Part shown: positions 1-3,000 of the stretch, one piece after another | How the letters are laid out: each line of letters opens with the position of its first letter | Numbering within the stretch: the first letter of the stretch is position 1 | Assembly (NCBI RefSeq): GCF_003991155.1 | Contig: NZ_CP031295.1 | Origin: Escherichia coli | Lineage (GTDB): Bacteria > Pseudomonadota > Gammaproteobacteria > Enterobacterales > Enterobacteriaceae | Length of the DNA stretch: 64,000 bases | Direction: 5' to 3' (one strand) | Made by a program: the position numbers

Positions 1-3000
1 CAACTTCTTGGTACAGAAATCCCGAAAATTACATGGGAAAAGATTGAGAGAAGTTTAACAGATGTTGAAGATGAAAAAACACTTCTTGTCCCATTTAAAG
101 CTGAAGGTCCGGAGGGTAAGAGAATGTATTATGGCATGTACCATTGTGAAGAGGGATATGTTGAATATGCGAATGACTAATACACTGTTATAAAGGCTGC
201 ATAAAAAGGCCGGAATCCCGGCCCTTATATTATCGCTTACCACTTTCTTTAATGTGAATTTCACCAGGAAGCAGTATCTGGTACTCTTTACCAGAAAACA
301 TCGCCCCGAGCCTTGTGAGCGACTCTCCGATGACGCCACGGTGAGTGCTGGCGTTAAAATCGTATTTATCATCATATGAACGAACAACGCCATTGTAAGT
401 CCAGGAGCCATTGGCAGAGATAGTTAAAGTACCTTCTGTTTTCAGTGTGATATTACCAAGATATGCACCGGTAATAACATTATAATCACCAGTGGCATGT
501 GTGAACTTTGTAGAAACAGGGAATGTACCTACTACACCAGATTTTATAATGTCTTTTATCTGATTAATTTTCATAGGGGAAATTTTAAGACCAATGTTGG
601 CGATATTAACGCTCCTTTCAGCGCCATTACCCCATAAATAGTGAGCAAGCGCCACAATTGGTGTAGTGACATTACCGCTCATTTGTTTCATATTCATTGA
701 GCGATAGTCATATTGACTTGGCGCTGGTTTTGAGAAGTGGTAAGCGTCATAAACGCTTATTCCAGGGTGAAGAACCAGATTTCGGTCGGCGTTACAGAAG
801 TAACCAATATTTGTCGATATGATCTGCAATGTGAGAGGGTTGCTAGCCCCATGTTTTTTGATGTAATCCTCAAGTTGAGTTAAAGCCTGAAGACACATGT
901 TTGGACTCTGGAAAAAACTATAAACAACCTGGACTAAAAGAGGTCCAGCACCAGGAACATGCGGTGCTGAAAGAGAAAATGCACCATTGCCATAACTTGG
1001 TAAGTTAGTTGATGGTGATGGTGCATGAACAGTTAAGGTTTCCATACATAACTCCTTATAAGTTAATAAGATAATAGAGTTCGCGGCTGGCTAACGCTTA
1101 CACCGGCGAACGAACCCCATGAGAGAGGCTCCCCATAACATTGTTTGCCGGATATGCCGTTAAAAATGGTAGGGAAGCACCTGAACTACCATATATAAGA
1201 TATATATCTGTACACTCCATTAAATACTGGAAATATATTGAGAACTCTGATATATAATCTATATATAAAAATACAAAAAGGTATATATATGACCAGCAAT
1301 AAAGATAAGAACAAGAAAGCAAACGAAATATTATATGCATTTTCCATAATCGGTATTATTCCATTAATGGCTATATTAATACTTCGGATAAATAATCCAT
1401 ATTCTCAAGTGCTGTACTACTTATATAATAAGGTTGCATTTCTCCCTTCTATTACATCATTGCATGATCCCGTCATGACAGCACTTATGTCAAACTACAA
1501 CAAGACAGCACCAGTTATGGGTATTCTCGTTTTTCTTTGCACATATAAGACAAGAGAAATCATAAAGCCAGTAACAAGAAAACTTGTTGTGCAATCCTGT
1601 TTCTGGGGGGCCGTTTTTTATGCCATTCTGATTTATATCACACTGTTCTATAATCTGGAACTAACAACAGCAGGTGGTTTTTTTAAATTATTATCTCATA
1701 ATGTCATCACTCTTTTTATTTTATACTGCTCCATTTACTTTACTGTTTTAACCATGACATATGCGATTTTACTGATGCCATTGCTTGTCATTAAATATTT
1801 TAAAGGGAGGCAGTAACACTGCCTTCCTTTTAATTATTTTATGATCTTGTGATTCAACTCATCAACAAATTTATCATCGATAAATGCACCAATAGCACCT
1901 GCAATAACTACGCCAACAAAACCAACAACTGTGGCCGGAAGACCAAAGGCTATAAGGGCCGAGCCTAATGTCAAAGAAAACAAACTAAGAGCTACAGCAG
2001 CTGGTTACGAACTTAATGGCCAGACTATTTATGTATTGCTCCTGTGGCACACACGAGAAAACAGGTAGATTGTGTGTGGGGACAACTTAACATAGCCTGC
2101 AGATATTAATTCTGGAACATTATTATCAGGCCAGATATTTTGCATTCCATTAAATAATCTTGTAGGAGATAAAATGAATTACGATGAAATAACGAAAATT
2201 ACCGCTGAACGTATTAGCGACTACATGACTGAAGCAGTTAATACAGACTCTATAGCCGTTGCGGAAATGTTTCATAACGCTGCATGGGGAGTGCGAACAT
2301 TGTGGTTTGAACTCGTCACAAAAATAGATATAGATATACATAAAAAGAACAGGTATGCGAGTTATGATCTTAGAAGGAAAATCGAAATGCAGCATGAAGA
2401 GTTTCAGAAAATGACAGAGCGTGAGCAAGTACCTTTATTGAAATCGCCAGAATGATGTTCAGCGACTTCGCCCAGGTATTTTCTTTCGCCCCTTTTATGC
2501 CCTGCCGGACATTGTATAAATGTAGGGCGGGCCGCTTGGAATTCGGAAAATAAACCACGTTAAGACTATTTTTTAGTCAAATGACTTTCAGGAATCGCCA
2601 GAATGGCGGGACAACAGCGGTTTTGGTGTCCGAAATCGTACAATTCTGAACATCTACGCAAGGGAATGTACGGAAGTAAGCCAAATGGTTATCGGACGGT
2701 AGGAGCATTTCGTACATCCTTTACGTTCAGTGAGTTAGCTGGCTTGGATGTAACCACTCGTTCAACTCAATTCTCTTGACGTGGGGAAATCCGTTTTCCA
2801 AGCGGACCCCTTATAGGGGGTGAGGGCCCCCTCCCCTTCACTCTTGACTATGTGAACGATAATCATTATCGTTAGTGTTTGTATGGTAATGGGATAGAAA
2901 GTAATGGGATAAAAAGTAATGGATAGAAAAAGAACAAAATTAGAGTTGTTATTTGCATTTATAATAAATGCCACCGCAATATATATTGCATTAGCTATAT

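Follow-up and report, generated by a model that had tools for sequence, protein, structure and literature searches.

The gene cvi encodes the immunity protein against colicin/microcin V. In a stretch of 64,000 nucleotides (nt) from Escherichia coli (contig NZ_CP031295.1; in the following referred to as the window), which by its gene content represents an IncF colicin/virulence plasmid, the start codon of this gene lies in the last unit of a tandem array with a period of 15 bp. The explanation that we favor, and consider probable, is that the array is a variable-number tandem repeat (VNTR) which arose by tandem duplication of the translation-initiation region of cvi itself and which is located in the leader downstream of a Fur-repressed promoter. 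An earlier note on this stretch had interpreted the repeats either as an extension of the Fur operator or as a slippage-prone tract that may modulate expression of the immunity gene. At the level of the DNA, the slippage-prone tract was borne out by our analysis, while the sequence lends no support to an extended operator.

The cvi start codon is part of a 15-bp tandem repeat

Tandem Repeats Finder returned a single array at positions 2886-2929 with a period of 15 bp, 3.0 copies, 90% matches and a score of 74, the consensus of the unit being GTAATGGGATAGAAA. Direct reading of the sequence gave the same picture of three head-to-tail copies, the third of which holds the cvi ATG, just as the earlier note had described. 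The unit length of about 14 bp and the starting point at 2880 given there had to be corrected to a period of 15 bp and a start at 2885/2886. When the 64-kb window was shuffled 60 times with dinucleotide composition preserved, no array with a period of at least 7 bp scored 74 or more (maximum 71). Similarly, the unit occurred twice when up to two mismatches were allowed, compared to 0.11 expected occurrences, and two matches were obtained in 0 of 100 shuffles. The tract is hereby confirmed as a true tandem repeat beyond chance, and it also behaves as one, because related plasmids differ in copy number by whole units (see below).

The copies differ in a characteristic manner. Copy 3 comprises only 14 nt, since it has one G fewer than copies 1 and 2: where the cvi copy reads GG, both upstream copies carry GGG, which results in the two-codon mini open reading frames (mini-ORFs) ATG-GGA-TAG and ATG-GGA-TAA, respectively (Table 1). 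The three ATGs at 2889, 2904 and 2919 share one frame, and the mini-ORF of copy 2, which is in frame with cvi, terminates 6 nt ahead of the cvi ATG. In every copy, the GGGA motif is spaced by 9 nt from the ATG of the copy that follows. An optional start further upstream depends on position 2883, which is polymorphic among plasmids (A or G, hence ATG or GTG).

A deviating unit was observed in one metagenome contig (L043, coverage 1.7x), in which an internal copy has GG in place of GGG and reads ATG GAT AGA AAG TAA, so that the stop codon overlaps the cvi ATG (TAATG). Either a sequencing error or a genuine transitional form between units of 14 and 15 nt could account for this allele.

Copy number changes by whole units on identical haplotypes

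Repeat number was not invariant among related plasmids. In 63 alleles that were read directly (24 database loci and 39 metagenome contigs), we found two, three, four and five copies, distributed over plasmids, genomes and metagenomes. The 381-bp region around the array is present in 666 plasmids of PLSDB and, with 737 records, in 724 of 5,426 complete E. coli genomes (about 13%), where it almost always resides on plasmids; the spans of the database matches fall into classes of about 366, 381, 396 and 412 bp. Copy-number frequencies were estimated from even-step samples of the database rankings. Three copies were present in 34 of 38 PLSDB rows (two copies in 3, four copies in 1) and in 51 of 57 rows of complete E. 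coli genomes (two copies in 5, four copies in 1), and the three-copy allele thus accounts for about 89% of the sampled plasmid and genome records. Among the PLSDB records listed, at least 48 have two copies, 8 have four copies and 1 has five copies; the five-copy allele is known from this single record. The 39 metagenome contigs comprised 26 three-copy alleles (two thirds), 12 two-copy alleles and 1 four-copy allele. The variation is not an assembly artefact, because plasmids of different laboratories, a Shigella plasmid and a metagenome contig from Illumina reads share one identical four-copy allele.

The upstream copies can be told apart by their stop codons, which allowed gains and losses to be followed on a given background. 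Where the 405 bp of flanking sequence are identical to those of the window, the upstream copies read (TAG,TAA), (TAG,TAA,TAA) or (TAG,TAG,TAA). A second flanking haplotype carries (TAG,TAA), (TAG,TAG,TAG) or four times TAG, the latter two alleles being found in plasmids of one poultry-farm survey, and (TAG, GTG-GGA-TAG) is found in a third lineage. To account for this pattern, copies must have been gained or lost independently at least five times, while the flanks are otherwise unchanged. As unit changes recur on identical flanks, slipped-strand mispairing is indicated as the underlying process. In the literature searched, we found no mention of the cvi tandem repeat or of its polymorphism.

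The array adjoins a Fur box but does not resemble a Fur operator

A predicted sigma-70 promoter (9 of 12 matches in a consensus scan) is located upstream of the array, and its spacer and -10 element are overlapped by the core Fur box. This box is a perfect palindrome, as the earlier note had stated, although the bounds given there (2856-2872) cover only the core of the full extent (2855-2873). Relative to the Fur consensus GATAATGATAATCATTATC, the site matches at 16/19 (at 2852) and 15/19 (at 2858), which places it among the best three sites in the window. According to a review summarising Boyer and Tai 1998, cvi is transcribed from a promoter at the Fur site, about 50 bp ahead of the gene. 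As the predicted -10 element ends at 2872, a transcription start near 2879-2883 is implied, and the repeat tract, which begins 13 bp downstream of the palindrome, would thus be transcribed and would probably form most, if not nearly all, of the 5' untranslated region of cvi. Fur would confer iron control through the core palindrome that lies over the -10 element, and the repeat would have no part in it.

The vicinity of array and Fur box may also be read differently. The repeat motifs GATA(G/A)A and GTAAT might serve as secondary Fur sites, such that Fur polymerises, possibly at high protein concentration, from the core box over the leader and the copy number sets the tightness of iron repression. 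At certain promoters, e.g. the aerobactin promoter, Fur is known to spread beyond its primary site onto secondary sites that are degenerate. Similar to Fur operators that are arrays of GATAAT-type hexamers, such as the 19-bp Fur box and, with extended protection, the operator of the aerobactin promoter, the cvi tract is AT-rich, adjoins a very good Fur box over the -10 element and contains a few near-hexamers, among them versions of NAT(A/T)AT with one mismatch (GGTAAT, AGTAAT and GATAAA). Functional sites, however, usually match the consensus at about 11/19 or more, or they consist of at least three contiguous NAT(A/T)AT hexamers. In a scan of both strands of 2862-2925 we obtained no 19-mer with 10/19 matches or more, a level that is reached by only about 2% of the window positions, and no exact hexamer. 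The hexamers with one or two mismatches are 15 bp apart instead of being contiguous in a 6-bp register, and every 15-bp difference between alleles rotates the downstream DNA by about 1.4 helical turns. Furthermore, in relatives with a lengthened operator it is the Fur hexamer CATTAT that was expanded (3-6 units), whereas the 15-bp repeat is present there at two copies. Given the consensus scan, the tract was downgraded as an operator extension, and we regard this reading as distinctly improbable. AT-rich repeats beside a Fur box need not be an operator, which calls for caution in the prediction of Fur regulons.

The CATTAT expansion adds to this promoter another polymorphism of the slippage type, distinct from that of the 15-bp repeat. 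The lineage in which it occurs (loci L020, at 1400-1500, L021, L022, L024 and L050) has a Cvi of 82 aa with a duplication of SALM and a truncated cvaC; in L020 and L021, CTTGAC of the -35 element is absent. Just upstream of the -35 element, window positions 2806-2835 contain the GC-rich inverted repeats GGACCCCTTATAGGGGGT and GAGGGCCCCCTC, whose G/C runs differ in length among plasmids (e.g. GGGGG versus GGGGGGGG).

A second Fur-like site, GTTGGTGATAATTATTATT (14/19), was noticed at 3084-3102 inside cvi, with the cvaC start following about 30 nt downstream. For plasmid pS88, quantitative reverse-transcription PCR in low iron is reported to show a 17-30-fold induction of cvaC but no induction of cvi (0.8-2.2-fold; PMC3438092). 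This pattern would be in line with an internal promoter under iron control or with differences in mRNA stability; a consensus promoter was not detected at the second Fur-like site.

Upstream copies are predicted to act as decoy initiation sites

The leader has 67 nt, of which only one is a C, and it is predicted to be unstructured (minimum free energy -0.1 kcal/mol, z = 0.75), and all leader AUGs should be accessible because of this lack of structure. A riboswitch- or attenuator-like element was ruled out by the same fold of the isolated leader, and an Rfam scan of 2500-3400 gave nothing on the tract, the sole match being a chance-level microRNA model at 2658-2724 (E = 0.12). The only element resembling a Shine-Dalgarno (SD) sequence for cvi is the GGGA of copy 2, 9 nt ahead of the cvi ATG. 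Its predicted duplex with the 3' end of the 16S rRNA has an energy of -4.0 kcal/mol, and the same value was obtained for AUG2904, compared to -2.8 kcal/mol for AUG2889 and -8.7 kcal/mol for cvaC. AUG2904 therefore matches the cvi AUG in its GGGA, spacing and energy within an accessible leader, and copy 2 is predicted to equal the real cvi start as an initiation site.

In the mechanism that we propose, the last copy bears the real start of cvi, and each upstream copy would be a disabled duplicate in which one extra G turns ATG-GAT-AGA into the dead end ATG-GGA-TAG or ATG-GGA-TAA in the frame shared with cvi. The copy directly upstream of cvi would supply the weak SD sequence GGGA, and the decoy AUGs would be used by ribosomes. 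Slipped-strand mispairing at replication would add or remove copies in 15-bp steps and thereby lead to the two to five copies in nature. Additional copies might result in at most a modest tuning of Cvi translation, either up or down; in a published precedent (mg2 of axe-txe, see below), a two-codon mini-ORF raises expression of the following gene in cis.

The beginning of cvi itself reads ATG GAT AGA AAA AGA (2919-2933) and contains the rare AGA codon at positions 3 and 5. AGA and AGG codons near the start are reported to influence translation in a minigene-like manner (PMC2490762, PMC2034473). In plasmid LC620533 (locus L005), a run of four instead of five A residues near the cvi start results in a frameshift of cvi.

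A more far-reaching role would be that of an adaptive translational rheostat, in which the decoy starts and mini-ORFs capture ribosomes or hand them over, and the copy number sets the level of Cvi. Slippage might then provide the plasmid population with heritable and reversible variation in immunity that is tuned against microcin production, and the three-copy allele would be expected to be favored in plasmids still making microcin V. The equivalence of AUG2904 and the cvi AUG in SD energy and spacing, the stop codon only 6 nt before the cvi AUG and the recurrent copy-number changes on identical haplotypes are in line with such a role. So is the resemblance to two-codon minigenes, of which those of phage lambda bar are an example: they likewise consist of an AUG, one sense codon and a stop codon behind an SD-like element, a few nucleotides upstream of a small gene of the toxin or immunity type. 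For the two-codon mini-ORF mg2 of axe-txe, which is located 15 nt upstream of the toxin gene txe and represents the closest functional precedent, an approximately 7-fold enhancement of downstream translation is reported, which acts in cis and depends strongly on the distance between stop and start (PMC8708949). Unlike these minigenes, the putative cvi mini-ORFs occur in variable number and are copies, arranged in tandem, of the start region of the very gene that they precede. Against a rheostat stands that about 89% of the database alleles have one and the same copy number, which is unlike classical contingency loci. Compared to tracts of mono- to tetranucleotides, slippage is expected to be much rarer for 15-bp units at two to five copies. 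We consider the rheostat unlikely, and the same applies to the heritable variation in immunity and to the advantage of the three-copy allele that it would entail.

The last of these points touches on the state of cvaC. In the metagenome sample, an intact cvaC adjoins 19 of the 26 three-copy alleles, compared to none of the 12 two-copy alleles (Fisher p = 4e-5), as an advantage of three copies in microcin producers would predict. However, the association follows lineages: the two-copy metagenome alleles belong to few lineages with cvaC remnants, and in plasmid records both cvaC states occur with both alleles, the association being much weaker. We accordingly set it aside as evidence of selection and attribute it to lineage structure.

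Two further readings concern the leader RNA. First, the three GGA motifs, 15 nt apart, might form an array for CsrA, whose dimers would bridge them and repress translation of cvi-cvaC. CsrA represses leaders with multiple GGA motifs, such as those of glgC, cstA and the ColE7 lysis gene, and its dimers bridge sites at spacings including this range. The cvi leader also has several GGA motifs within a short span, of which one falls into the SD region and another directly follows the AUG, and GUAAUGGGAUAG of the upstream copies matches RUACARGGAUGU, the consensus from systematic evolution of ligands by exponential enrichment, at 8 of 12 positions including GGAU. As the copies are duplicates, this amounts to a single independent match of modest quality, and in contrast to CsrA-repressed leaders the match to the consensus is partial and the motifs are not presented in hairpin loops, the leader being unstructured. 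No link of CsrA to cvi or to colicin V regulation was found in the literature searched, and we rate such an array as very improbable.

Second, cvi codons 36-40 (ACUUUUUAUCCAU, 3025-3037) could pair with the start copy, in which case the upstream copies would compete for this segment as RNA decoys and free the start. An 11-nt perfect inverted repeat connects 2907-2917 with 3025-3035, and 2919-2929 matches 3027-3037 at 91%. The 11-nt complement, which joins copy 2 to codons 36-40, dominates the predicted folds. In partition-function folds, pairing with the cvi copy reached p = 0.79 in a hypothetical one-copy leader and shifted mostly to the upstream copies at two or more copies. The energy of the duplex between leader and coding region was, however, ordinary when set against dinucleotide-shuffled coding regions (p = 0.13-0.15), and the predicted accessibility of the cvi start in full-length transcripts did not rise consistently with copy number. 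Compensatory changes were not observed; the core of the element is invariant, and it is also under coding constraint. Given the shuffle values and the lack of covariation, we rejected the pairing with codons 36-40 as evidence, and we attach very little credence to a decoy function of this kind.

No one-copy allele was found among the Cvi relatives read

A one-copy allele was not encountered among the 63 alleles read. Likewise, a synthetic one-copy query against complete E. coli genomes gave no one-piece match of 351 bp in the top rows, which is no more than suggestive, as such an allele might be ranked further down if its haplotype were divergent. Cvi forms a narrow family of 18 clusters, all of them at least 78% identical. 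Exactly two copies are present in its most divergent relative (82% identity, in a microcin-L-like cluster) and also in the E. albertii alleles. A search for distant Cvi homologues that might represent a repeat-free ancestor yielded none, the most divergent member retaining two copies. The minimum of two copies fits a functional role of the copy upstream of cvi as SD donor; we propose that at least two copies are always present because this copy provides the SD sequence for cvi. The three-copy state of classical ColV plasmids would fit a derived condition.

Some of our results weigh against this interpretation of the array as a largely neutral VNTR with an SD donor. The promoter scan taken alone does not exceed the shuffle expectation (2 sites compared to 2.3 expected). 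Since GGGA is a weak SD sequence, it may be mainly the lack of structure and the abundance of A in the leader on which cvi translation depends. Nothing can be concluded from the conservation of the mini-ORFs, as the whole region barely diverges within a Cvi family that is at least 78% identical. The absence of one-copy alleles covers the 63 alleles read and the top rows of the query, of roughly 1,400 database records. Finally, the skew of three-copy alleles towards intact cvaC could mean selection on copy number rather than near-neutrality.

Downstream of cvi (loci L006, L015, L019, L028, L041 and L056), several two-copy loci carry an ORF of 27 codons, in which the CvaC leader MRTLTLNELDSVSGG is fused to 12 unrelated residues. 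It is followed by a separate gene for an MccV-family bacteriocin of 105 aa and then by genes for an MchF-type exporter. This arrangement indicates that cvi has been reused in another microcin cluster.

Comparison with known VNTRs and uses of the array

With its high-identity copies beyond chance, its whole-unit differences and its homoplasy, the cvi tract has the properties of bacterial VNTRs, which share with it head-to-tail, near-identical units, unit-step polymorphism among close relatives and repeated gains on one haplotype. As in contingency loci with promoter or leader repeats, the array is situated in a region that controls expression. It differs from both in having a unit of 15 bp, only two to five copies and one dominant allele (about 89%). 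The array is an ordinary VNTR, if unusually placed, and adds one example to a well-known class of sequences.

The operon cvi-cvaC is carried by ColV and ColBM virulence plasmids of avian and extraintestinal pathogenic E. coli, for which the leader repeat offers a cheap and apparently unreported micro-evolutionary typing marker. In addition, the alleles with two to five tandem decoy starts constitute a natural series that is suited to study the effects of two-codon mini-ORFs on a downstream start. If copy number tunes immunity, this would be an unusual, contingency-like control via a duplicated translation-initiation region; if it does not, the array is an ordinary neutral VNTR.

Gene context and other repeats in the window

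The genes in the window are arranged in the order cma, cbi, cvi, cvaC cut by the insertion sequence IS1, and RepFIB. A 100%-identical stretch in pPSUO2 is annotated as cmi, cma, cbi, cvi and IS1A transposase, the latter directly after cvi. Correspondingly, cvaC is interrupted after codon 66 (…SPSGW*) by IS1, the end of which (GGTAATGACTCC) begins at 3332, which leaves a remnant of 67 aa compared to 103 aa in intact relatives. From this gene content, the plasmid is predicted to retain colicin V immunity but to be incapable of producing colicin V. The cvaC remnants in other relatives end at no fewer than four different cut points.

Table 1 Positions of the cvi leader elements and of neighbouring genes in the window
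Feature	Position	Strand	Description and basis
cma (colicin M)	230-1045	minus	Gene content of the window
cbi (colicin B immunity)	1238-1816		Gene content of the window
cvi promoter, predicted, sigma-70	2844-2872	plus	-35 TTGACT (2844-2849), 17-nt spacer, -10 TATCGT (2867-2872)
Core Fur box	2855-2873	none	Perfect 19-bp palindrome AACGATAATCATTATCGTT; consensus match
Optional upstream start	2883-2897	plus	ATG(2883)-GTA-ATG-GGA-TAG; direct reading
Repeat copy 1	2886-2900	plus	GTAATGGGATAGAAA; mini-ORF ATG(2889)-GGA-TAG(2897); SD-like GGGA 2891-2894
Repeat copy 2	2901-2915	plus	GTAATGGGATAAAAA; mini-ORF ATG(2904)-GGA-TAA(2912); GGGA 2906-2909
Repeat copy 3	2916-2929	plus	GTAATGGATAGAAA; true cvi start codon 2919-2921
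cvi (colicin/microcin V immunity protein)	2919-3155	plus	78 aa; ORF; annotated 'cvi: colicin V immunity protein' in 100%-identical records
cvaC remnant	3133-3336	plus	67 aa; ORF and sequence

Three other tandem arrays were noted elsewhere in the window. Positions 28900-29415 are occupied by 12 copies of a 43-bp unit (Tandem Repeats Finder score 815), which, by size and copy number, we take to be the sopC partition centromere of F-type plasmids. A perfect array of 7.9 copies of a 9-bp unit (AACAGCCGC) is located at 60343-60413; one of its frames reads Gln-Pro-Gln repeats, presumably akin to those in TraD. At 7661-7712, 2.5 copies of a 21-bp unit, possibly iterons, lie beside the RepFIB repA gene.

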